A DNA stretch of 64,000 nucleotides from Bernardetia sp. OM2101 (GTDB lineage Bacteria > Bacteroidota > Bacteroidia > Cytophagales > Bernardetiaceae), in the NCBI RefSeq assembly GCF_042180575.1, contig NZ_CP170094.1, positions 1,848,604 through 1,912,603 of the forward strand. Reading direction: 5' to 3'. The stretch's first letter is position 1. Every line of letters begins with the position of its first letter. The notes beneath the pieces were generated by a model, which saw only the letters and a program-made list of their open reading frames with translations, had not been told where the DNA came from and searched no databases. Positions 3,971 through 52,802 of this stretch are shown one piece after another. The translations under genes and the position numbers were made by a program.

Positions 3971-4011
3971 AAAAGGATATGGAATTTTTTTATGATTCTG
4001 TATCCTTTTTG
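3971..4011 (+). terminator. Rho-independent terminator hairpin after purL (copy 1 of a thrice-repeated terminator sequence)
   Basis: AAAAGGATATGGAATTTTTTTATGATTCTGTATCCTTTTT: an imperfect stem with G:U pairs followed by a T-run. Confidence 0.55.
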
Positions 4012-5150: not shown

Positions 5151-5193
5151 AAAAAAGGATATAGAATTTTTTATAATTCTGTGTCCTTTTTTT
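5151..5193 (+). terminator. Terminator hairpin after the GNAT gene (copy 2 of the repeated terminator)
   Basis: AAAAAAGGATATAGAATTTTTTATAATTCTGTGTCCTTTTTTT. Confidence 0.55.
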
Positions 5194-7088: not shown

Positions 7089-7187
7089 CTTTATGAAGAC
7101 TTGGGATTCAAATCAACTCACGAAGGAATGAAAATACATTTTTATTAAAAAGAATATGAGTTTTTTTATAACTCTGTATCCTTTTTT
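7089..7187 (+). repeat. About 90%-identical duplicate of the GNAT gene 3-prime end (last roughly 19 codons) plus its terminator (terminator copy 3)
   Basis: 7089-7187 aligns to 5089-5193. Compare TTATGAAGACTTGGGATTCAAATCAACTCACGAAGGAATGAAAATACATTTT with TTATGAAGACTTAGGATTCAAATCAACTCATGAAGGAATGAAAATGCACTTT. A terminator hairpin variant follows. Confidence 0.8.
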
Positions 7188-9790: not shown

Positions 9791-9884
9791 TTTTTTGAAG
9801 ATGTATCTTTTATTAAACTCTATTTAAACTACTCACACTCTAAAGAGTATGCTACATTTTTTTTGGAAGTGTTTTTATACAAAT

Positions 9885-9915
9885 TTACTAAAAATAATAG
9901 CATAAACTAAAAAAA
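9885..9915 (-). promoter_or_regulatory. Conserved promoter-associated motif, copy 1, upstream of dnaB
   Basis: The minus strand reads TTTTTAGTTTATGCTATTATTTTTAGTAAATTTG. It contains a Bacteroidetes -7-like element TAAATTTG (TAnnTTTG). Confidence 0.5.
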
Positions 9916-11266: not shown

Positions 11267-11310
11267 TTTTTAAATTTTATTTGTTTTTTTAATCTTCGAA
11301 AGTCTTAACA

Positions 11311-11348
11311 AATTTACTGAAAATAATAGCATAAACTAAAAATTTTTG
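11311..11348 (-). promoter_or_regulatory. Conserved promoter-associated motif, copy 2, upstream of the 10478-11266 gene
   Basis: AAATTTACTGAAAATAATAGCATAAACTAAAAATTTTTGGGTTTT on the plus strand. The minus strand contains TAAATTTG. Confidence 0.5.
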
Positions 11349-11444
11349 GGTTTTAATTTGTTAGTTTATAAAAGTATGGGTTTACTACAAAAAAGAATTT
11401 GAATTATGTTAGACTGAAAACAATAAAGAAGAACAGGAGTTTTT

Positions 11445-12605: not shown

Positions 12606-12654
12606 AAGAAATATAAATAAAATTTTGAGAAATAAATCTTTATCTATAAAATTA

Positions 12655-12690
12655 ATAGCAGAAACTAAAAATTTTTGGGTTTCTATGCGT
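12655..12690 (-). promoter_or_regulatory. Conserved promoter-associated motif, copy 3, upstream of the 11445-12605 gene
   Basis: AATTAATAGCAGAAACTAAAAATTTTTGGGTTTCT shares the AATAATAGCAtAAACTAAAAATTTTTGGGTTT core with copies 1 and 2. Confidence 0.45.
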
Positions 12691-12798
12691 TGTTATTGGT
12701 CTTCCAGAAGTAAAAAAGAAGTATTTGGTTTTAGTGTTTTTGAAAAATAGGAAAACTAATAATAACGCACATTTTCACAAAAAAAGCTATTTCGCAGC

Positions 12799-14178: not shown

Positions 14179-14370
14179 ATTTTGGTGGTAAAAAACACAC
14201 TTCAAACGAGAGTTTAAAATTATAAACCAACGAATCTCAACTGTCAATTATCCAGTTCATACTCTAAAAACATACTAACTATGAACAGAGATTAATTCAG
14301 AAGGGAAAAATTATTTATTTGAAATTGAAGGAGTAGATATTTTTTACTAGAAGTATTTTTATTGAGAAAA

Positions 14371-14682
14371 AGAATTGGTTATCTGACAGTTTTTGTGGAG
14401 CGTGTAACAATGAGTAGTTAAATTACAACTCATTAATAGACTTATTTGCCTTTCTGTTCCATAGGAACTTGATATTTATTGGTAGCAAAGTTAAGAAGCT
14501 AGAAACTGTATTCTGTTCCGTTAGGAACTACACATTGGTAGCATTTAGAATAGGTAGTAAAAAATGCTATACAACTCCTACGGAGTAGATGAGTTTTAAC
14601 GTTTCTATTTTTCTACCAATATAAAACTCCTAACGGAGTAAAAATCAAAATTTTACAAAAATTGTCAGATAACCAAAGAATT
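14371..14682. mobile_element. MITE-like element with 20-bp terminal inverted repeats (GGTTATCTGACAGTTTTTGT) enclosing a roughly 200-bp core of paired hairpins; copy 1
   Basis: 14373-14397 and the reverse complement of 14655-14680 match at 19 of 20 positions. The core 14456-14652 (GTTCCrTAGGAAC...ACTCCTAACGGAGT) is about 80% identical to 18853-19043. Confidence 0.6.
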
Positions 14683-14744
14683 TGACTCTGTTCATTTTTT
14701 TTTGCGTTACAACTTATTTGAAACTCATTTTTATCAAAAAATAT

Positions 14745-15671
14745 ATGGATAACTTCAATCAAAAATTCAAGCAACTTTTTTTTGGAATAAGGAAAAACAT
14801 AGCAGAAGAAATTTATTTATGTGCAACAGAAAATCAAAATTCTTTTCATTATGCAATGCTTTGTGCTTTTTTTGATGATAAAATAGGTACAATAAATAAT
14901 AGTAAATTGAGAAAAACACTCAAAGAAGAGTTTATGAACTCCTCATTTTATATTCTCAATTATGATGCACCTTACAAAGGAGGTTATCCAATTCATAAAG
15001 GAATAAAAACTATATTTTCTTCGAATGATGATTTCAAAGGCTTCTTAGAAGAATTAATGAGTAATTATTGGACACAAAAAGAATTTGACTTTGATTCAAT
15101 AGAGTTATTTGAAGATAGAGAACCAAAAAACATAAGAGAAAGAACTTTACATAATCCCCTTCAAACTCCTGCCTCAAATGGAGTTGTTATCCAAAAGCAT
15201 TATTTTTTCAATGTCAAAAATGTAATTGTTTTTTATGAAAAACTTATAAAATCATTCTTTCCAGATTACTCAAAAAATAAATCTTTATCAAAAAAAGGAA
15301 TTCTTAGATACACTAAAGATATTGGAAATCAAATGAGTATTGCTTTATACATTGATACAAATTATATACAGACAGAGCTAAAAAATATGTATTTAGAATT
15401 ACCTCGTATAGAAATTGAAATTCTTTCAAATTCTTTCCATACATTTTTGAAACAAGAAAATTACCTAATAGAACAAGATGAATACCCAATTTATAGAATA
15501 GGCTTTAATTATTTTTTGGGTCAAAATCCTCATCTGTTTAGAATAGGAAATTCTAGTGAAGACAAAGGAATTTTATTTAAAAAATCTATATTTTTCTTTG
15601 AACAGTATTCATTCTTTATAAAAAGATATGCTGAAATAATAGAGAAAAATTTAGCCAAATCTATTCTGTAA
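14745..15671 (+). CDS. Hypothetical protein
   Basis: The ORF track gives 14682-15671. The likely start is the ATG at 14745 (MDNFNQKFKQ...), because the upstream part of the ORF lies inside the MITE terminal repeat. Confidence 0.5.
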   Translation: MDNFNQKFKQLFFGIRKNIAEEIYLCATENQNSFHYAMLCAFFDDKIGTINNSKLRKTLKEEFMNSSFYILNYDAPYKGGYPIHKGIKTIFSSNDDFKGFLEELMSNYWTQKEFDFDSIELFEDREPKNIRERTLHNPLQTPASNGVVIQKHYFFNVKNVIVFYEKLIKSFFPDYSKNKSLSKKGILRYTKDIGNQMSIALYIDTNYIQTELKNMYLELPRIEIEILSNSFHTFLKQENYLIEQDEYPIYRIGFNYFLGQNPHLFRIGNSSEDKGILFKKSIFFFEQYSFFIKRYAEIIEKNLAKSIL

Positions 15672-15780
15672 TAAATACCTATTTTTTTGGTATTCAAAAT
15701 TATTATATAAATAAAAAAAACTCCTCAAAAGAACCATAAAGCATTCTTTTGAGGAGTTTTGATTACTAACAAATTCTATT

Positions 15781-17367
15781 TTAATTTGCCGAAGCAGTCA
15801 AAGCATTTTGCAAATTAATTTTTCCCCAACCGAAGTTTGAATTACGATTTGGATAATAACTTGCCGAAACTTTGAGTTTATTAAGCACTTGATTTCTTGT
15901 AAGGCTTGGATTTGAAGACCAAACTAAAGTTGCCATTCCAGCCGTTTGAGCAGTTGCAACAGATGAGCCTCCAACTGTTGCAGGAACATCACCCGACATA
16001 GCAAGTGTAAGAGGATGACGACCATTTGATGCTTTTTCCATTACCACTACAAAATCAACTTTCGAACCGTCATGACATGCATCACAACGTTGCATATTGT
16101 CTTTTACACCTGTTACAGCTACTGTTTCATTCATTGTAGCAGGAAAAATAACACCAAACCAACCCGAAGACCAGCCAAATGAAGTTCCAGCAGCACAGAA
16201 AATCAAAACATTTCTATTGTAGGCATAACGAACAGCATCAGCAATTTGAGAACTATTTGTAATTCTTCCCAAAGACATACTCGTAACACGAATATCTGAA
16301 CGATTACCAGCAATTACATACGCATCAGAAACACCTTTTGATTCTCTAGAACCTTCAATAAGTACATCTTCTGCTGCACGAACTGTAACCAAATTAGCAT
16401 TGTAAGCAATTCCTGTTGCACTTCCATCTGTACCACGAGAACCACCCAAAACTCCTGTCATAGCCGTTCCGTGTCCACAGTCATCATCTGGAGTTTCAGG
16501 ACTTCCAATCGGAATTCCCCAAAAAGTATCACGAGGAAGTGTTACTAATTTTTCTATTGTTCTACCTTGTGAAAGTCCTTGATTAAGTCCACTTCCATAA
16601 TTATTTTGTGCAAAGCTAGAGCCTGTATCAATAATCATTGCTGTTATTCCACTTCCAGAAGCCGTATTCCAAGCCTGTGAAACATTATGAAAATTGTGAT
16701 TCCAAGAACCTTTTGAATTTGGAGCTAAGGTGGTGTAATCTACTCCGTTTATAAGTCCATTTTCAGGATTACTTCCACTACAACCACTACTAGAAAGTTC
16801 TTTATTAAACTGCTGACCTTTGCTTACATTTGGTTCATAACCCATTGGTTCAGCATAACGAACAAAATCAGATTTACGAAGGAGAGTTAATGTCGTTGGA
16901 TTTTTGATAACTACATCTAAAACAGGAAGTGTATTTTCTTCAAAAGCAATTAATTCTTCACGCTTCAAATCTGGATTTAATTTTCTTTCTGATTCAAAAA
17001 TCATATCCAAAACGTAATTTTTAGCATCATTCCATTCACCTTGATTAATATCTATTTTATCAATAATAGTACGAATATCTTTATTTTGACTTTTGGGTTT
17101 AAAACCAACTGCCAAAACACCATCTGACTTGGAAAGCGCATTCCAAATAATTTGTTCTGATTGTTTGTTCCAATCAAAAGAACCTTCTTTTTTGACAGTT
17201 TCCCAGATTATGTTATCTAAATCAGAACGATCAATAGCAGCATGCTCAATAGCTTGTTCTGTAATAATTTCAGATTCTTGCTGACAAGAAAACATCATAA
17301 AAGCTGCAATAGCCAAAGGAGAATAGCGTCGAACAATCGACTTTGAATTGAAAAAATAAGTTTTCAT
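15781..17367 (-). CDS. S8 family serine peptidase (subtilisin-like), secreted
   Basis: 528 aa with a signal peptide. The catalytic motifs are DTGSS (Asp), HGTAMTGVLGG (His) and GGSSVATAQTAGMA (Ser). Confidence 0.85.
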   Translation of the reverse strand: MKTYFFNSKSIVRRYSPLAIAAFMMFSCQQESEIITEQAIEHAAIDRSDLDNIIWETVKKEGSFDWNKQSEQIIWNALSKSDGVLAVGFKPKSQNKDIRTIIDKIDINQGEWNDAKNYVLDMIFESERKLNPDLKREELIAFEENTLPVLDVVIKNPTTLTLLRKSDFVRYAEPMGYEPNVSKGQQFNKELSSSGCSGSNPENGLINGVDYTTLAPNSKGSWNHNFHNVSQAWNTASGSGITAMIIDTGSSFAQNNYGSGLNQGLSQGRTIEKLVTLPRDTFWGIPIGSPETPDDDCGHGTAMTGVLGGSRGTDGSATGIAYNANLVTVRAAEDVLIEGSRESKGVSDAYVIAGNRSDIRVTSMSLGRITNSSQIADAVRYAYNRNVLIFCAAGTSFGWSSGWFGVIFPATMNETVAVTGVKDNMQRCDACHDGSKVDFVVVMEKASNGRHPLTLAMSGDVPATVGGSSVATAQTAGMATLVWSSNPSLTRNQVLNKLKVSASYYPNRNSNFGWGKINLQNALTASAN

Positions 17368-17602
17368 TTTGTAAAGAGTATTTATATTTGTGTGTTAAGT
17401 CAAAAAAAGTTAATTGACTAATTCTAAGGGCAAATATAAAAATATATTTTAAAAAAAGTGATGCAAGCCGAATATTTTTTCAAAAAAAATTAATTTATCC
17501 AAATTTAATACACCTTTAACAACTTATTCATTCTTAGTTTTATGCAAAAAAAAGAACTTGAGTTTTCAAATTCTTTTTGAGGTGTAATTTTTATTACTTC
17601 TA

Positions 17603-18757
17603 TCAAATCACCAACAAATTACACCCTCTGACATCAGAATAATCAAAACGCCCCAAGACTTGAAACTCTCCCTTTGCATTTATCTTTCCTAAATCCTGTG
17701 TTTCGATAAAGGCACAGCTTTCTACATTTGCCAAATCAATGACATTGATTGCACCACTTTGAATTTGATGATTACTTATACTATTATTCATACTTTCTAT
17801 CTTTTTCAAGTCAAAAGGGTCGTTGGTATCACGAATAATTATTTTGAGACAAGAAGGCGTTTGAAACCAAATTTCTGTGTTTTCATTATTATTTTTCAAA
17901 TTATTTTGGTTTGTATTTTTGAGTGCATAACCTTGAGATAAAAGCTCTGTCATTCCATATTCTGAATCAATCGCCGAGACTCCAAACGCTTTTTTTAAAA
18001 CAGAATGTACTTCTTCTCTTACCATTTCTTTTTTTCGTCCTTTCATTCCTCCTGTTTCCATCACAATTATTTCATTTTTTATAGTGTTTTCTTCAAATTG
18101 TTGTGTCTTTGGTAGGCTATAATTTGGGTAATTTTCTGTCAAAAAATCAGCAAAATCTAAAAGCGCAAATGTTACTCCTAGTAATAAAACTGGTTTTTTA
18201 GGATTCTTTAAAGCAGCTTTTTCTAATTCATTTTTAAGTTTTTCATAATCATAGAGAAAATAATTTGAGTTTGATTGAGCATTCTTCAAAAAATAATCTA
18301 CCATATAAATCAAGGAAGAACCATCACGTTCCAAATAAGAAGGCAAGAGCGCAAAAATCTGAAAATCATTTAATTTTCCATATTCCTTATACAATTCTTC
18401 AAAAATAAATTGACTTGATTTTTCATAAAAATGCAAATCCGAAATAGCATGTTTGCTTCTATTTGTTTGGTCGCTCGTTCCACTACTTGTAAAAATTTGA
18501 TTTGTCTTTACGCCTTCTATTTGCACATTATGTGACTTAAAAAATCGAATAGGTAAAAATGGAATATCATAAATAGACTTTATAGAATTTGCCTTTAATG
18601 AGTCAATATTCAACTTTTCTAAATACTGCTTATAAACAGGATTATATTTTGATTGGAAATAAAATAATTCTAAAGTCTTTTTTTCGAATGCTTCAAAATC
18701 ATTTTTTGGAATAGAGAAGATACTCTCTTTATAATTTTTGATAAAATTTTCGTGCAT
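17603..18757 (-). CDS. LuxE/PaaK-family acyl-protein synthetase-like adenylate-forming enzyme
   Basis: 384 aa containing FTSSGTSDQTNRSKHAISD, which resembles the acyl-adenylate motif of the LuxE/F390-synthetase family. Confidence 0.55.
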   Translation of the reverse strand: MHENFIKNYKESIFSIPKNDFEAFEKKTLELFYFQSKYNPVYKQYLEKLNIDSLKANSIKSIYDIPFLPIRFFKSHNVQIEGVKTNQIFTSSGTSDQTNRSKHAISDLHFYEKSSQFIFEELYKEYGKLNDFQIFALLPSYLERDGSSLIYMVDYFLKNAQSNSNYFLYDYEKLKNELEKAALKNPKKPVLLLGVTFALLDFADFLTENYPNYSLPKTQQFEENTIKNEIIVMETGGMKGRKKEMVREEVHSVLKKAFGVSAIDSEYGMTELLSQGYALKNTNQNNLKNNNENTEIWFQTPSCLKIIIRDTNDPFDLKKIESMNNSISNHQIQSGAINVIDLANVESCAFIETQDLGKINAKGEFQVLGRFDYSDVRGCNLLVI

Positions 18758-18773
18758 ACTTTTTTTTAAAAGG

Positions 18774-19140
18774 TCGCTCGTGAGGACACCATAGCCGTAA
18801 GGTTAAAAATTATTTAACTTTTTAGCTTCACTGCTTTCGTTACACTTCAAGTGTTCCGTAGGAACTTTATATTGGTAGTAAATAAAAGAAAAAATTGTAT
18901 TCTGTTCCGTTAGGAACTACATATTGATAGTATTTTCAATATAAAATGCAACCAATATACAACTCCTACAGAGTAAATGAATTTTATTTTTTCTGTTTTT
19001 ATCTATCCAATATGGAACTCCTAAAGGAGTAAAAAACAAAATTCCTCAATAGCCTCACGGCTATGGTAAGGACACGAGCAACGGTCAGTTTTGCTATCTT
19101 GTGAATAACCCATCCATTGCTTGTGTCCCCACAAGCGATA
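18774..19140. repeat. Nested palindromic repeats: the hairpin GTCGCTCGTGAGGACACGAGCAACGG is split by an inserted element with terminal inverted repeats ACCATAGCCGT/ACGGCTATGGT. That insert in turn carries MITE core copy 2 (18853-19043). An additional GCTTGTGTCCCCACAAGC hairpin sits at 19114-19140.
   Basis: The left half at 18774-18803 and the right half at 19053-19088 rejoin to match the intact hairpin at 51845-51872. The core matches 14456-14652. Confidence 0.7.
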
Positions 19141-19346
19141 TATATATTACAAAACTAAAAACATTCTTTTTCGTTAAGAAAGGAATACTATTTTTGATAA
19201 ACTTTCAATAACTTTTATGAAAGTGATTTAAAAGTAGCTAAAACAAGTATAAAAATGAAATAACAATTTTTATTCTCATAAAAAATTACGATACTTGTTA
19301 GATTAAGATTTAACTGATAAATTCAAAATCTATATAAGTTAAAAAT

Positions 19347-19429
19347 CGTCGGTGGGGACACCGACAATGGCGAGGAGAGTATTACTAAGTCGCTGTTTTT
19401 TCCGTTGTCGGTGTCCCCACTGACGACAA
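19347..19429. repeat. Inverted pair of GTCGGTG-GGGA-CACCGAC type REP-like hairpins immediately upstream of hslU
   Basis: TCGTCGGTGGGGACACCGACAATGG ... CCGTTGTCGGTGTCCCCACTGACGACAA. This is the same family as the elements at 51514, 51933, 52169 and 30734. Confidence 0.7.
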
Positions 19430-19445
19430 AATTGAAAATAAATTT

Positions 19446-20840
19446 ATGATTGACAATAACATCTATTATACGCCCCGACAAATCGTTGAGGAGCTTGACA
19501 AATATATCATCGGACAACACGACGCTAAAAGAAATGTAGCCATTGCGCTGCGTAATCGTTGGAGACGCATGCACGTCAAATCAGATATGCAACGTGAAAT
19601 TATGCCAAACAATATTTTAATGATTGGTTCAACAGGTGTTGGAAAAACAGAAATTGCTCGTCGTTTGGCAAAAGTAGCAAATGCTCCTTTTGTAAAAGTA
19701 GAGGCTTCAAAATTTACAGAAGTGGGTTATGTGGGACGTGATGTAGAAAGTATGGTGCGTGATTTGGTAGAACAAGCTGTCAAACTTATTCAAACTGAAA
19801 AGCGTGATGCCGTAAAACAAAAAGCAGAAAAAGCTGTCGAAGATATTATTTTAGATGCACTTATTCCACCTCTAAAAAATAGACAACCTTCTACTGCACC
19901 TTCTACGGTCGGTTTTTCTGATGAAATGCCTACTTCTGATGCCGAGCTTAATGAAAGAACAAGAGAGCGTTTTAGAGAGAAATTACGTGTAGGAGAATTA
20001 GAAGACCGAAAAATTGAGATTACATTAGAATCTAGTAATAATCCTGGTGTTGGTGTTGTAGGTGGTGCGATTGATGAAGTTTCGATGATGAATCTTCAAG
20101 AAATGTTAAGTGGAATGTTACCTTCTCGTTCCAAAAAACGTAAAGTTACGATTGAAGAAGCTAGAAAGTTGCTTTTAGAAGAAGAAGCCTTCAAACTTAT
20201 TGATATGGATGAGGTAAAAATAGAAGCCATCAAAAAAGCTGAAAATTCAGGAATTATTTTTATTGATGAAATTGATAAAGTAGCCTCTTCGGGAAATAAA
20301 GGTGGAGGAGCTGATGTAAGTCGTGAAGGTGTGCAGCGTGATTTATTGCCGATTGTAGAAGGAAGTGCCGTAACTACAAAACACGGAATTGTAAATACAG
20401 ACCATATTTTATTTATTGCAGCAGGAGCTTTTCACGTTTCAAAACCTTCGGATTTGATTCCAGAGTTACAAGGACGTTTTCCAATTCGTGTAGAACTCAA
20501 TTCACTTACAAAAGAAGATTTCCATAAAATCTTGAAAGACCCAAAAAATGCCCTTAGTAAACAATATGTTTCTCTTTTGGAGTCGGAAGGCGTAAAACTA
20601 ACATATCAAGAAGATGCCTTGGAAGAAATTGCTGATATTGCTTTTCATATTAATAGTGAACTTGAAAATATTGGAGCAAGACGTTTGAATACAGTGATGA
20701 GTCATTTATTAAATGAAATTTTATTTGATATTCCAGATACTATTCCTCCAAATGCTCATGTAGTAATCACAAAAGAAATGGTACAAGAAAAACTCAAAGC
20801 TCTTGTCAAAAATAGAGATTTGAGTCAGTATATTCTTTAA
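19446..20840 (+). CDS. hslU: ATP-dependent protease ATPase subunit HslU
   Basis: 464 aa. It has the N-terminal motif TPRQIVEELDKYIIGQHDAKRNVAIALRNRWRR and the Walker A motif IGSTGVGKTEIARRLAK. Confidence 0.93.
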   Translation: MIDNNIYYTPRQIVEELDKYIIGQHDAKRNVAIALRNRWRRMHVKSDMQREIMPNNILMIGSTGVGKTEIARRLAKVANAPFVKVEASKFTEVGYVGRDVESMVRDLVEQAVKLIQTEKRDAVKQKAEKAVEDIILDALIPPLKNRQPSTAPSTVGFSDEMPTSDAELNERTRERFREKLRVGELEDRKIEITLESSNNPGVGVVGGAIDEVSMMNLQEMLSGMLPSRSKKRKVTIEEARKLLLEEEAFKLIDMDEVKIEAIKKAENSGIIFIDEIDKVASSGNKGGGADVSREGVQRDLLPIVEGSAVTTKHGIVNTDHILFIAAGAFHVSKPSDLIPELQGRFPIRVELNSLTKEDFHKILKDPKNALSKQYVSLLESEGVKLTYQEDALEEIADIAFHINSELENIGARRLNTVMSHLLNEILFDIPDTIPPNAHVVITKEMVQEKLKALVKNRDLSQYIL

Positions 20841-51404: not shown

Positions 51405-52652
51405 TCAAAACTCTCTGTCTTTCCATTTTACCTTTTTTGTTTTCAAAAAATAAATTCCTACTAAGAAATATAAAAATGATTCTATCAAACAGAAAAGAAA
51501 AATTTGTATTATAGTTGTCGGTAGAGACACCGACAAAGGCAAGAGTTTTAATTTTATAAAAAATGAAATAATCAGTAAAAAATTAATTATTGAAATTATA
51601 AAAATTGATAGAATGAAGTAAAAATTTCCACTCAAAATTATTCCTAGTAGTATTCCTAACAAAAAGATAATTCTGAATAAATAAGCTATCAAAATTCCTT
51701 TTTTAAGAAAATTAGAAAACTGCCAAGCTCCACAAAACCAACGATGACGCTGTAAAATCCAATCTTTTAGAGTAGGTTCTGCTTCTGTGAAAGCTAAAGA
51801 TTGAGGATTGAAAAGATGAAGGAAGAATTGATTTTTGTTTATAAGTCGCTCGTGAGGACACGAGCAACGGTGTTTTTTTTGCTTTTCTAATTGTCTGACA
51901 CTTTGAAGTGTCTGACAATTTTGTTTTTCCTGCCGTTGTTGGTGTCCCCACCAACGCCCATTTATGTGATTTTGAAAGGCTTTAAAAAGAGCTACATCTT
52001 CAGTTACTGAAAACTCAATGTTTTCATATCCTCCTATTTCTTGATACGTCTTTTTATCAAAAATGAGATTATTTCCCATTGCAGTTTGTGGAAAATGGAG
52101 TTTTGAAAAAATGGCTAAAATTCCCTGTCCAAAGACCCAGTCTATTATTTGAAAAGTAGTAAGAAATTGTTGTTGGTGTCGCTTCGTTAAAACACCAACA
52201 ACGGCATTATTTAATTTGGGAATTGTCGTTCCCATTACCATTTTTATATATTCTTTTTGATAATATTTTTTTACTAATTCTTTGAGCCAATTTTGATTTA
52301 CTAAAATATCAGCATCTAATAAAATAATGGTTTCTCCTTCTGAATGATTGATTAATTGATGAATAACATTTACTTTGCCTTTCAGATTTATTTCTTTATT
52401 TGAATTTTCTATTTTAAAATACTTAAAATTTATTTTTTGATTTTCTTGAATGAATTTGTTTCTAAATTTCTTTATAATTCCTGCACTCTCATCTATTGAA
52501 TCATCATCTCCAATCAAGATTTCTAATTCAAAATTATTGTTATTTTTTTCTGTTTTGTAAAATTCATTTATAGCTAGTTGTAAATTATCTAAGCAAGATA
52601 AAATTATTCTTTCTTCATTTCTGACGGCTACTAGAATACTTATTTTTTTCAT
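51405..52652 (-). CDS. Family 2 glycosyltransferase carrying four in-frame palindromic repeat insertions
   Basis: The GT2 motifs are ILLDAD, MGNNLIFDKKTYQEIGGYENIEFSVTED and QRHRW. The peptides AVVGVLTKRHQQQ, NGRWWGHQQRQEKQNCQTLQSVRQLEKQKKHRCSCPHERL and LPLSVSLPTT are encoded by GC-rich hairpin repeats. Confidence 0.8.
   Translation of the reverse strand: MKKISILVAVRNEERIILSCLDNLQLAINEFYKTEKNNNNFELEILIGDDDSIDESAGIIKKFRNKFIQENQKINFKYFKIENSNKEINLKGKVNVIHQLINHSEGETIILLDADILVNQNWLKELVKKYYQKEYIKMVMGTTIPKLNNAVVGVLTKRHQQQFLTTFQIIDWVFGQGILAIFSKLHFPQTAMGNNLIFDKKTYQEIGGYENIEFSVTEDVALFKAFQNHINGRWWGHQQRQEKQNCQTLQSVRQLEKQKKHRCSCPHERLINKNQFFLHLFNPQSLAFTEAEPTLKDWILQRHRWFCGAWQFSNFLKKGILIAYLFRIIFLLGILLGIILSGNFYFILSIFIISIINFLLIISFFIKLKLLPLSVSLPTTIIQIFLFCLIESFLYFLVGIYFLKTKKVKWKDREF
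51514..51539. repeat. REP-like hairpin GTTGTCGGTAGAGACACCGACAAAGG inside the GT2 coding sequence
   Basis: It belongs to the GTyGGTG...CACCrAC family, and translation runs straight through it. Confidence 0.75.
51845..51958. repeat. Cluster of three hairpin repeats inside the GT2 coding sequence: GTCGCTCGTGAGGACACGAGCAACGG, then TTGTCTGACACTTTGAAGTGTCTGACAA, then CCGTTGTTGGTGTCCCCACCAACGCC
   Basis: Each matches intergenic copies elsewhere: 18774/19053, 52731-52802, and 19347-19429. Confidence 0.8.
52169..52205. repeat. Hairpin repeat GTTGTTGGTGTCGCTTCGTTAAAACACCAACAACGGC inside the GT2 coding sequence
   Basis: It belongs to the GTTGGTG...CACCAAC family and encodes AVVGVLTKRHQQ in frame. Confidence 0.75.
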
Positions 52653-52730: not shown

Positions 52731-52802
52731 TCAGTACACCTTCAAGGTGTCAGACAATTTAGTCCAACATAGCTGTCTGACACTCTGAAGTGTCTGACAG
52801 GG
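52731..52802. repeat. Two GTCAGACA/TGTCTGACA-type hairpin repeats downstream of the GT2 gene
   Basis: CAGTACACCTTCAAGGTGTCAGACAA and GCTGTCTGACACTCTGAAGTGTCTGACAGGG are the same family as the repeat at 51891-51918. Confidence 0.7.

Follow-up and report, generated by a model that had tools for sequence, protein, structure and literature searches.

In Bernardetia sp. OM2101, the spacer between hslU and a divergently oriented LuxE-like gene contains a set of nested repeats, which were analysed within a 64-kb stretch of DNA (the whole of which is referred to as the window; loci compared with it carry L numbers). The repeats add ~370 bp of strongly folding DNA to this divergent promoter region. 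Central to the locus is the 26-nt hairpin GTCGCTCGTGAGGACACGAGCAACGG, here named REP-A, an unbroken copy of which is found at 51845-51870. The copy upstream of hslU is split into two parts (18773-18789 and 19066-19084) by a 276-bp element. The split copy, a 29-nt spacer (19085-19113) and the copy at 19114-19139 make up an inverted REP doublet 16 bp upstream of the LuxE-like gene (Table 1). The original prediction placed the intact hairpin at 51845-51872 and the split one at 18774-19088; these and all other sequence features that it named are present, with coordinates off by a few bases, but it overlooked a 10-bp direct duplication flanking the element (GTGAGGACAC and GTAAGGACAC, 9/10 identical). 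Removal in silico of the 276-bp element and one copy of the duplication, which joins 18773-18789 to 19076-19084, restores the REP-A hairpin with 26/26 identity to the intact copy. The nested repeats at the hslU locus are a real case built from known kinds of element.

The split and unbroken copies had been regarded as a complete pre- and post-insertion pair within one window. An identical intact copy is indeed present, but the pair is paralogous, not orthologous; in the orthologous LuxE-hslU spacers of four other Bernardetia the whole composite is absent. The contigs of close relatives with an hslU orthologue (L011-L013) start too near hslU to include the insertion site.

Table 1. Positions of REP-A copies, MITEs, REP-B units and target-site duplications in the window
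Feature	Position	Strand	Remarks
ISL3-type MITE (copy A) with duplications	14369..14682	+	MITE 14377-14674 (298 bp), core 14456-14652
Left part of split REP-A, GTCGCTCGTGAGGACAC	18773..18789	+	excision restores 26/26 identity to 51845-51870
Left target-site duplication, GTGAGGACAC	18780-18789	+	last 10 nt of left REP-A part
Type-1 MITE (copy B), 276 bp, without ORF	18790..19065	+	imperfect terminal inverted repeats, target-site duplication
29-nt segment, AGCTTCACTGCTTTCGTTACACTTCAAGT	18824..18852	+	directly 5' of first GTTCC hairpin
Direct REP-B unit 1, GTTCC-GTA-GGAAC + tail TTTATATTGGTAG	18853-18878	+	
Direct REP-B unit 2, GTTCC-GTTA-GGAAC + tail TACATATTGATAG	18904-18930	+	
Inverted REP-B unit, CCAATATAC-A-ACTCC-TAC-AGAGT	18952-18974	+	
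Inverted REP-B unit, CTATCCAATATGG-A-ACTCC-TAAA-GGAGT	19003-19030	+	
Right target-site duplication, GTAAGGACAC	19066-19075	+	in right part 19066..19084
Remainder of split REP-A, GAGCAACGG	19076-19084	+	adjoins right target-site duplication
Partner REP-A copy, ATCGCTTGTGGGGACACAAGCAATGG on minus strand	19114..19139	-	inverted doublet with split copy
Second REP-A inverted doublet, intact	19346..19426	.	arms 19346-19370 / 19402-19426, 92% complementary
Lone diverged REP-A copy, CCGTTATTGGTGTCCTCGCCAATGAC on plus strand	30735..30760	-	
Lone REP-A copy, GTCGGTAGAGACACCGACAAAGG-like	51516..51539	+	within GT2 ORF
'Unfilled' reference REP-A doublet	51845..51958	.	hairpin 51845-51870, inverted partner 51933-51958, inner palindrome 51889-51920; within GT2 ORF

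REP-A belongs to a family of short, imperfect palindromes that is repeated in the window, is mostly intergenic and includes three inverted doublets, as is typical of REP/REPIN sequences. Its motif occurs seven times in the window against 0.05 expected from shuffle controls, and the core motifs and both types of inverted repeat described below occur twice each against 0.01-0.3 expected; chance similarity of the hairpins, core and inverted repeats was rejected by these controls. The additional hairpins predicted at 19114-19140 and 19347-19429 proved to be further REP-A copies in inverted doublets. The second of these doublets stops 20 bp before the hslU start codon and is orthologous in L048 and L049, and B. 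litoralis DSM 6794 has a single REP at this position. The reference doublet (51845-51958) lies in frame within a GT2 glycosyltransferase ORF (51405-52652, minus strand), and identical REP-A copies are also found at L002 and L004. The lineage of Bernardetia sp. OM2101 carries REP-A chiefly as inverted doublets. No RAYT gene with REP-A copies at its flanks was seen in the window or loci. Some copies start with CGTC (e.g. 19347), and CGTC-tagged REPs have been reported without a dedicated transposase (PMC3733652).

The 276-bp element and its target duplications

The element has the terminal inverted repeats CATAGCCGT.../...ACGGCTATG, an imperfect pair consisting of CATAGCCGTAAGGTTAAAAATT (18790-18811) and its complement at 19044-19065; the end sequence given in the original prediction, ACCATAGCCGT, takes in two bases of the duplicated target. 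Relatives fall into two types by their ends, and a 10-bp duplication is found in seven elements across both: type 1 in the window (9/10), L007 (10/10) and L005 (9/10), and type 2 in L003 (9/10), L008 (10/10), L009 (9/10) and L030 (9/10). In L030, taking out the element together with exactly 10 bp restores the reading frame of an IS1634-like transposase; duplications of 8 bp or 6 bp were considered for type 1 and rejected, as L030 and L009 fix the length at 10 bp. The loop within the duplication, AGGA in the window and TCCT in L007, is asymmetric; it is oriented as the target is and not as the element is, and so represents a true duplication. In L003 and L040 the 29-nt segment AGCTTCACTGCTTTCGTTACACTTCAAGT is found on the 5' side of the second GTTCC hairpin, whereas L001, in other respects near-identical to L003, lacks it; the segment is an optional addition within the MITE.

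Three complete relatives have no direct duplication: the flanks of L040 are inverted (8/10), and those of L002 and L006 match at only 4/10 positions. The L041 flanks are apparently inverted too when read by eye, although a scripted search found no end pair there. All these cases call for secondary recombination or decay as an explanation, and recombination is made plausible, if not proven, by L005, which has an element in each of the two hairpins of a doublet. Inverted flanks in L040 and L041 could also be taken to mean that the mobile unit is the whole composite, i.e. the REP-A halves with the inner element, spreading with REP-A and having the REP stem as its outermost inverted repeat; REP-A-like sequence adjoins four of the five type-1 copies that are complete at both ends (L041 on its left side only). 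This we regard as quite unlikely. The loop-containing 10-mer is directly duplicated in the orientation of the REP (AGGA/TCCT) in the window, L005 and L007, unlike a fixed terminal repeat; the REP stems vary by site (GCTCGTG, GTCGGTG, GCTTGTG), as they would for independent targets; and a doubly occupied doublet such as that of L005 could yield the L040-like arrangement by recombination.

To our knowledge, single-strand transposition of the IS200/IS605 and RAYT type leaves neither terminal inverted repeats nor a target duplication. Both are found here, CATAGCCGTAAGGTTAAAAATT with its complement and the duplications in the window, L007 and L005, and they point to cut-and-paste DDE transposition. 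The RAYT/IS200 link that was originally proposed for the locus holds for the REP units of the core, and is not supported for the insertion that split the hairpin. The ends themselves resemble those of the IS231 subgroup, for which the signature CAT-------AA--TAA--- and direct repeats of 10-12 bp have been published (PMC2266710 Table 1). The type-1 consensus end, CATGTCCGTCAAGTTAAAAA, matches this signature at 8/8 specified positions and the left end in the window, CATAGCCGTAAGGTTAAAAA, at 7/8, and the 10-bp duplication falls within the published range. CATGTCCGTCAAGTTAAAAA also agrees at 26/28 positions with the end of a repeat carried by plasmids of Bacillus mycoides/cereus; no annotated transposase adjoins this repeat, so that an IS231 identity is only putative. 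Type-2 ends compare with real E. coli IS4 ends (TAATGCCGATCAGTTAAGG). A search for an autonomous partner with type-1 and type-2 ends matched just MITE copies and the one Bacillus repeat, and a full-text literature search for the end sequence TCAACTTAAG returned unrelated papers only. The DDE assignment is thus suggested by two sequence features, the end signature and the length of the duplication.

The REP-B core, its two frames and the Y1 transposase gene

The 190-bp core of the element consists of four REP-B units, two direct and two inverted, in each of which a 5-bp stem closes a loop of 3-4 nt and is joined to a ATATTGGTAG tail. Among 74 units with the GTAG-type tail, the stem is GTTCC/GGAAC in 43 and ACTCC/GGAGT in 22; both stems are perfectly paired, with changes on both sides. 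As predicted, the core is also found at 14456-14652 between different ends (78% identity over 206 aligned columns). The original prediction held that a lack of further copies would speak for coincidence; they are found at 10 loci in three Cytophagales genomes, and also on two Bernardetia plasmids and metagenome contigs.

The core at 14456-14652 lies in copy A, whose 21-bp inverted repeats, GGTTATCTGACAGTTTTTGTG, are flanked by a perfect 8-bp duplication, AAAGAATT (8/8; 14369-14376 / 14675-14682). A tblastn search against plasmids found a Bernardetia ISL3 element, on a plasmid of Bernardetia sp. Wsw4-3y2; the end of this annotated ISL3-family IS, GGTTGTCTGACAATTTTTGTG, matches GGTTATCTGACAGTTTTTGTG at 19/21 positions, and the full IS has an 8-bp duplication, AATAAGAT. 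The sister MITEs L022 (AAAACGAT) and L027 (ATGAATCA) have 8/8 duplications. Judged from its ends and the 8-bp duplication, copy A is an ISL3-family MITE. A 26-aa N-terminal fragment of an IS with copy A ends had no Pfam match. The idea that the core had flipped inside its ISL3 frame was considered and dropped, as retained opposite, decayed type-1/2 arms (window copy, L022) explain the arrangement equally well.

REP-B units also flank a 153-aa Y1_Tnp gene (PF01797, E=6e-30) in L029, L033, L035 and L036, with two direct units 5' and inverted units 3', and are in addition dispersed in MITEs. The direct pair at 18853-18930 and its spacer are homologous to the DNA 5' of the Y1 gene in L029/L033, and the reverse complement of the inverted pair at 18952-19030 matches the 5' flank in L036/L035. 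The core corresponds to the flanks of the Y1 gene minus the gene, i.e. a REPIN-like unit. The Y1 protein contains the HUH motif DHIHIL, and its gene has the same neighbours in 4/4 loci (a ~350-aa protein upstream and a DUF58 protein downstream), the proteins of these loci being 82-97% identical. The gene is syntenic, RAYT-like and putatively single-copy in related Cytophagales. The protein scores 30.7 bits with the NCBIfam REP_Tyr_transpos model, against a cut-off of 80, and thus falls below the RAYT model; its best NCBIfam model is transpos_IS200 (82 bits against a cut-off of 55), and many of its homologues are named RayT by JGI. No cognate Y1 gene was found by tblastn in the 64-kb window, and a Bernardetia plasmid carries a 56%-identical Y1 paralogue with a different REP variant.

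The proximity of REP-B and the Y1 gene raises the question of whether the RAYT-like Y1 transposase itself mobilises the element, in which case its 'ends' would form the outer region of a large REPIN, and some unspecified repair would give rise to the duplication. L033 has a complete four-unit element with arms directly beside the Y1 gene, and in both L029 and L033 the REP units at this gene border on a portion of the type-2 end (…TAAGGTAAGAAATTCT). These two loci also have the innermost 15-19 nt of that end (TAAGAAATTCT) next to the gene, so that the boundary between 'end' and 'REP unit' is not sharp. Such a mechanism would also agree with the search for a DDE partner in the window, 50 loci and the Bernardetia plasmids, where no IS231-like DDE transposase gene with the YREK motif and bounded by CATGTCCGTCAAG-type ends was found. 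We consider it very unlikely all the same, given that the outer end fits the IS231 signature, that the duplication length fits the IS4 family and that the orthologous spacer in L036 has AATCATATTTTA, part of the same flank, without an adjoining MITE; part of the apparent 'arm' in L029/L033 is therefore ordinary flanking DNA. It also counts against Y1 mobilisation that we know of no HUH/Y1 transposase that makes target duplications.

The core folds strongly as RNA (z = -8.6 and -9.5), its hairpins are conserved and its stem variants are compensatory, all of which would be expected of a structured non-coding RNA gene or a cis-regulatory RNA of the neighbouring genes rather than of mobile DNA. 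It is, however, near-palindromic and folds equally on both strands, and neither the neighbouring gene nor the orientation is consistent among copies. Rfam returned nothing relevant for the whole window at gathering thresholds or for 14200-19500 at E<=5. With inverted repeats and duplications bounding the core, and the L030 copy interrupting a transposase gene, an RNA function of this kind is extremely improbable.

Assembly of the nest and hairpin tips as targets

The locus was originally described as a three-level nest. According to this description, three successive hairpin-into-hairpin insertions would have taken place here (the core into the ACCATAGCCGT palindrome and the latter into the REP loop), all by structure-recognising IS200/RAYT single-strand transposition. 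The core units are genuine RAYT-type REPs, two unrelated end types enclose one and the same core, insertions into hairpin tips recur and REP dimers within long palindromes have been published (PMC3733652), and each of these observations fits such a series. Against it stand the inverted repeats and 10-bp direct duplication of the element that splits the REP, and the recurrence of type-1 ends and core as one unit in the window, L002, L005, L007, L040 and L041, in at least four genomes. No empty end-palindrome (CATAGCCGT...ACGGCTATG without the core) was found among the window and loci sequences searched. Since the ends and core travel together and the empty form was not encountered in that search, they were joined earlier and not at the hslU locus, which displays two levels of nesting; three insertions at this site are unlikely.

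Hairpins had also been predicted to be preferred targets of other elements, and hairpin tips are recurrently occupied in several genomes. The position at which type-1 elements split REP-A hairpins is identical in the window, L005 and L007, and related elements occupy this tip in either orientation in other Bernardetiaceae genomes. Type-2 relatives in L003 and L008 occupy the tip of another hairpin, CACTCT-AAAG-AGAGTG, with perfect or 9/10 duplications, and L006 and L001 have the left junction only in a hairpin of this type. The further claim that secondary structure is recognised instead of a sequence motif is not supported, as targeting of a symmetric sequence fits too; tip targeting may reflect either dyad symmetry or hairpin extrusion.

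Taken as a whole, the preferred explanation, that a non-autonomous DDE MITE with a REP-B tetrad inside landed at the tip of a REP-A hairpin, is probable. The 276-bp MITE would have inserted at the tip of the left hairpin of the doublet upstream of the LuxE-like gene; the enzyme acting in trans was probably an IS231-subgroup-like DDE transposase of the IS4 family. A 10-bp stagger between its cuts, placed symmetrically about the dyad axis of the hairpin, would account for the duplication GTGAGGACAC. The REP-B tetrad would have been enclosed by DDE-type ends at least twice, by IS231-like ends at 18790-19065 and by ISL3 ends at 14377-14674; we infer both the transposase that moved copy B and the route by which the tetrad came between the ends. 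A broader reading, which is possible but rather doubtful, is that these elements are chimeras of two systems, RAYT-like tetrads enclosed by DDE ends at least twice and independently, of which the IS231-like form would home to extruded tips by shape or dyad symmetry rather than by sequence. Homing of this kind is suggested by the two unrelated hairpin families that are hit and by the loop-centred 10-bp duplication. REPINs and RAYT genes have been described as long-term residents of bacterial genomes that are passed on vertically. Were the chimera reading true, such a vertically inherited REPIN population would gain a second, RAYT-independent route of spread.

Comparison with known systems

The type-1 MITE resembles IS231 and MIC231 in its ends, which start with CAT and have AA at positions 11-12 and TAA at 15-17, in a duplication within the 10-12 bp range and in marked insertion specificity; like MIC231, it is a non-autonomous cassette of IS ends around foreign DNA (PMC2266710). 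It differs in its host, a member of the Bacteroidota (Bernardetia) instead of the Bacillus cereus group, in a cargo of a REP tetrad in place of genes, in having the tip of a REP hairpin as its target and in that a cognate transposase was not found in the sequences searched here. REPs are known targets of ISs: IS1397/ISKpn1, IS621 and other IS110 members, and the IS4-family element ISRm22 likewise insert within REPs at a constant position, with many independent copies (PMC1525189). In the present case it is a MITE rather than a full IS that invades the REP, with a 10-bp duplication centred on the loop, in another host phylum and another REP family. The hslU locus offers a testable case of hairpin-tip targeting by a putative IS4-family element beyond Proteobacteria and Firmicutes.

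The core shares with REP/REPIN-RAYT systems (REPtrons) its short, GTAG-tagged hairpins, which are dispersed and clustered in alternating orientation, and its units form the inverted flanks of a syntenic Y1 HUH gene (PMC3733652; PMC3116915). Unlike REPINs, which are doublets, it is a tetrad (2+2), and the Y1 protein scores as IS200-type and not with the proteobacterial RAYT model. The DDE-type inverted repeats and target duplications around the tetrads are undescribed for REPINs. Clusters of REPs within long inverted sequences, with no empty copy found, have been reported for Anabaena GTAG-15 and Halothiobacillus CGTC-1, for which no mechanism was given (Di Nocera et al. 2013; PMC3733652). The enclosing palindromes described here have IS-family end signatures and target duplications and are therefore considered to be transposon ends, which provides a concrete mechanism for the previously unexplained finding that some REP dimers are always inside long palindromes. 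Copy A is similar to ISL3-family MITEs in its 21-bp repeat, which is that of the annotated ISL3 element from Bernardetia, and in its AT-rich duplication of 8 bp, and differs from them in its REP tetrad cargo. At the hslU locus both situations are seen together, a REP cluster riding in a DDE-type MITE and the MITE in the tip of another family's REP. Nests of this kind break short-read assemblies, and it is at these repeats that contigs from close relatives stop.

The split hairpin and its orthologous spacers

The LuxE-like gene and hslU form a divergent pair with a spacer of 688 bp, in which a hairpin of the 26-nt REP-A family is interrupted by an insert (copy B). When the segments 18773-18789 and 19076-19084 are joined, they match the unsplit hairpin at 51845-51870 in all 26 of 26 positions, in agreement with the original prediction of a split hairpin upstream of hslU with an unsplit twin. 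The predicted terminal inverted repeats were also recognized, as an imperfect pair (CATAGCCGTAAGG... / ...CCTCACGGCTATG), and a 10-bp direct repeat on either side of the insert (GTGAGGACAC / GTAAGGACAC) had been overlooked. The REP-A motif occurs seven times in the window, where 0.05 occurrences would be expected by chance. The LuxE-like protein shows 100% identity to its counterpart in Bernardetia sp. OM2101, which places the window in that genome or a near-identical one.

Features of the window discussed in the text
Feature	Position	Strand	Remarks
Copy A	14377-14674		type-3 MITE
Second occurrence of the core	14456-14652		within copy A
LuxE-like gene	17603-18757	minus	
Left part of split hairpin	18773-18789		GTCGCTCGTGAGGACAC
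Insert (copy B)	18790-19065		276 bp, type-1 MITE
Right part of split hairpin	19066-19084		GTAAGGACACGAGCAACGG
Inverted second hairpin copy	19114-19139		29-nt spacer from split copy
Complete inverted REP-A doublet	19346-19426		
hslU	19446-20840	plus	AAA_2/AAA domains
GT2 glycosyltransferase ORF	51405-52652	minus	
Unsplit hairpin	51845-51870		GTCGCTCGTGAGGACACGAGCAACGG
Third palindrome family	51889-51920, 52737-52759, 52774-52800		TGTCTGACACTTTGAAGTGTCTGACA

The orthologous LuxE-hslU spacers of B. litoralis DSM 6794 (L046), Bernardetia sp. Wsw4-3y2 (L049) and two further comparison loci (L048 and L050) all align to the window from 19152 onwards. Neither the REP-A doublet nor the MITE (window site 18758-19151) is present in any of the four, and no 'REP without MITE' state was found among them; the pre-insertion/post-insertion pair that had been proposed is a paralogous one. 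Relatives hold another hairpin at this spot, GACAGACTTTCTAGTCTGTC in DSM 6794 and L050, GGTTCAAGCGTCGACGCTTGAACC in L049 and a decayed form in L048; the REP-A and MITE composite is thus lineage-specific, and this point of the spacer is a hot spot for hairpin or palindromic insertions. The doublet at 19346-19426 is common to the window, L048 and L049, and a single hairpin is found there in DSM 6794 and L011.

Element ends and transposon families

After alignment of all copies, from the window and from comparison loci (labelled L) on Cytophagales genomes, Bernardetia plasmids and metagenome contigs, the elements were grouped by their ends, and their flanking repeats were scored by script. Homology is visible between the type-1 and type-2 ends.

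Element types with their ends, members and flanking direct repeats
Type	End	Members	Flanking direct repeats
1	CATGTCCGTCAAGTTAAAAATT	window copy B, L002, L005, L007, L040, L041	window 9/10, L007 10/10, L005 9/10
2	CAATGCTRTTAAGCTAAGRA	L001, L003, L006, L008, L009, L030	L003 9/10, L008 10/10, L009 9/10, L030 9/10
3	GGTTATCTGACAATTTTTGTG	window copy A, L015, L016, L022, L023, L024, L027	window 8/8, L022 8/8, L027 8/8

At L030 an IS1634-like transposase gene is interrupted by a type-2 element, and removal of the element together with exactly 10 bp regains the reading frame (...ITLNHGYSRDYHPDLKQ...). The duplicated 10-mer includes the asymmetric loop, which is AGGA in the window and TCCT in L007; its reading depends on how the target hairpin is oriented, irrespective of the direction of the element. 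The 10-mer is thus a true target-site duplication, and its interpretation as an extension of the inverted repeat is ruled out. Inverted repeats together with a duplication of fixed length are the signature of DDE-type transposition; neither is known from single-strand transposition of the IS200/IS605 type.

Next to two type-3 MITEs, contigs run out in the type-3 inverted repeat and the beginning of an ORF (MDNLQLYEELLNLPFLRVVSVNIEKH). In tblastn this fragment matched only one annotated ISL3-family transposase, at its N-terminus, encoded on a plasmid of Bernardetia sp. Wsw4-3y2 (weak, E=3). The ISL3 element of that plasmid has the termini GGTTGTCTGACAATTTTTGTG and CACAAAAATTGTCAGACAACC and an 8-bp flanking repeat (AATAAGAT), so that copy A is an ISL3-type MITE. 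In the IS4 family, the IS231 subgroup has been tabulated with the end signature CAT-------AA--TAA---, direct repeats of 10-12 bp and marked insertion specificity (PMC2266710); the type-1 end CATGTCCGTCAAGTTAAAAA agrees with all specified positions of this signature, and its duplication is 10 bp. The type-1 end also shows 26/28 identity to the end of a repeat (CATGTCCATCAACTTAAAAATTTTATAG), a putative IS231, that many Bacillus mycoides/cereus plasmids carry, and the genuine ends of E. coli IS4 (TAATGCCGATCAGTTAAGG / TAATGCCAGTCAGTTAAGC) are similar to type-2 ends (13/19 against L009, counted by eye). As a search of the window, the comparison loci and Bernardetia plasmids for an autonomous partner of the type-1 and type-2 elements found none, their putative IS231-like assignment is drawn from end sequence and duplication length only. 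Genes for IS1182, ISL3 and IS4-family transposases lie adjacent on the Wsw4-3y2 plasmid (L039, NZ_CP147018.1 463479-468553); this 602-kb 'plasmid' also encodes frr (ribosome recycling factor), so that the replicon may be a chromid.

At the hslU locus, where three levels of nesting had been proposed, two events are readable, namely the REP-A doublet and the type-1 MITE in one hairpin tip. The core and type-1 ends are found together in at least four genomes, and no end-palindrome without a core was seen in the window or the comparison loci, so their union is older than the insertion at hslU. At least the inner arm (...TTTATAGTNATTCT-core-AAAATTCTTTATAGCT...) is retained in every core copy, including L004, L010 and the type-3 elements, which makes the type-3 MITEs look like type-1/2 elements enclosed in ISL3 ends.

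The core and its origin

The core of the insert is found again in copy A with 78% identity, there inside type-3 ends, so that its predicted recurrence within different ends is borne out. It is composed of four units, two direct (GTTCC-N3/4-GGAAC, then (T)NNATATTGGTAG) and two inverted (CTACCAATAT-NN-ACTCC-N3/4-GGAGT); both carriers of the core in the window are much more stably folded than their shuffled versions (z = -9.5 and -8.6), and an Rfam search gave no family, even at E<=5. A core-derived pattern was found at 10 loci in three Cytophagales genomes (one Bernardetia sp. MAG and two uncultured Cytophagales MAGs), BLAST located core copies on two Bernardetia plasmids and a single-unit pattern was present in 19 metagenome contigs; the lack of further copies that would have refuted the prediction was thus not observed. 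Three elements, representing two end types, have a 29-nt segment (AGCTTCRCTGCTTTCGTTNCACTTCARGT; window 18824-18852, L003 4470-4501, L040 about 1494-1522) directly on the 5' side of a GTTCC hairpin, which is the first hairpin in the window and the second one in both L003 and L040. L001, in other respects near-identical to L003, lacks the segment, which may be a very small insertion that has a site preference of its own.

In several metagenome contigs the core unit stands in inverted orientation around a 153-aa ORF (start MANTYTQIHIHFVFAVKFR..., containing ...DHIHIL...), the product of which is a Y1_Tnp/IS200-like protein (PF01797, E=6e-30). With NCBIfam it scored 82 bits for the IS200 model (cut-off 55) and 30.7 bits for the proteobacterial RAYT model, below the cut-off of 80; many homologues have been named RayT by JGI. 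Protein identity across L029, L033, L035 and L036 is 82-97%, and the two flanking genes are constant, which suggests that the gene behaves as a domesticated single-copy RAYT and not as a hopping IS200. Two direct units lie on its 5' flank and inverted units on its 3' flank; the 5' flank in L029 and L033 aligns to the left MITE half, spacer included, and that in L036 and L035 to the reverse complement of the right half. The proposed RAYT/IS200 link therefore holds for the core units, which flank a Y1 gene, but not for the splitting insertion, with its inverted repeats and 10-bp duplication.

Among the 74 collected units the stem is GTTCC/GGAAC in 43 and ACTCC/GGAGT in 22, all of these being perfectly paired, and the two variants differ by changes on both stem sides; it is thus the local hairpin that is conserved and not a long-range duplex. 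A Bernardetia plasmid paralogue of the Y1 protein (56% identical) also has a 2+2 layout, with another hairpin, CAGCT-GCAT-AGCTG plus ATATTTGTAG, the pattern expected if gene and REPs co-vary. The core is thus a REPIN-like tetrad of GTAG-tagged REPs (REP-B), as these are understood in PMC3733652. Two Y1 loci whose proteins are 97% identical differ by ~155 bp in the 5' flank (L033 2693-3000 against L029), with the direct repeat ATATTGGTAG at the borders of the differing stretch; this turns a two-unit flank into a complete four-unit element, a sign that REP units turn over rapidly beside the Y1 gene.

Hairpin tips as targets and neighbouring repeats

REP-A is split at one and the same position by type-1 elements in the window, L005 and L007, and these insertions were independent events, since the REP stems vary by site and both orientations are found. 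At the start of L005 (1-400) a second type-1 end adjoins the partner REP, so that both hairpins of one REP-A doublet are occupied; the flanks in L040 (1400-1700) come from two REPs of opposite orientation, one contributing its left half and the other its right half (8/10 inverted), as expected after recombination between two type-1 copies in REPs. Type-2 elements in L003 (duplication 9/10) and L008 (10/10) occupy the tip of another hairpin, (A)CTCACTCT-AA-AGAGTGAG(T), and here too both orientations occur. For L006 and L001 a hairpin of this type is seen at the left junction only, and the type-2 elements of L009 and L030 lie outside such hairpins. An empty look-alike of the type-2 target hairpin usual in Cytophagales MAGs, CACACTCTAAAGAGTATG, is found at window 9834-9851.

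Insertion of IS elements into REPs is well documented, an IS4-family element being among the examples (PMC1525189). The 10-bp duplication has the loop at its centre in each of the two hairpin families (GTG-AGGA-CAC and CTC-TAAA-GAG), which fits a transposase dimer that would prefer a dyad-symmetric or extruded target. Recurrent tip insertions in two hairpin families support the proposal that hairpins are preferred targets, but its second part, that structure rather than sequence is recognized, cannot be separated from a symmetric sequence cue, the present data being compatible with either.

Each component has a counterpart of a known kind: REPs or REPIN-like clusters with a Y1 transposase gene for the core, MITEs with IS4/IS231-like ends and with ISL3 ends for copies B and A, respectively, and REPs as insertion targets for the REP-A tip insertion. 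REP dimers enclosed in long palindromes have been reported without a mechanism (PMC3733652). The combination appears undescribed, in that a RAYT-type REP tetrad is cargo between DDE-type ends of two IS families and one of the DDE-ended forms targets hairpin tips of a second REP family. As a whole, a DDE-type MITE with a REP-B tetrad as cargo in a REP-A tip is a reasonably probable explanation, of which the transposase identity is the weakest link.

The reference unsplit REP-A doublet (51845-51958) lies inside the GT2 ORF and is read through in frame (…GRWWGHQQRQEKQNCQTLQSVRQLEKQKKHRCSCPHERL…), in likeness to the in-frame palindromic elements of Rickettsia. Distant homologues are missing ~44 aa at this point, and the nearest (76% identity) has the insert only in part; a single REP-A at 51516-51539 changes the C-terminal membrane segment. 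One copy of the third palindrome family lies in the doublet spacer within the GT2 gene, and the ~15 nt (CAAAATTGTCAGACA) that TGTCTGACACTTTGAAGTGTCTGACA has in common with the ISL3 inverted repeat CACAAAAATTGTCAGACAACC suggest that the palindrome may consist of two ISL3 end fragments joined to one another. Among other short intergenic repeat families, a terminator-like palindrome (AAAAGGATAYRGAAT...ATTCTGTRTCCTTTTT) is found downstream of three genes (3971-4010, 5152-5191 and 7147-7186), and a ~35-45-nt motif, TAATAGCAKAAACTAAAAATTTTTGGGTTT, is shared by three spacers (9879-9913, 11308-11362 and 12649-12691).
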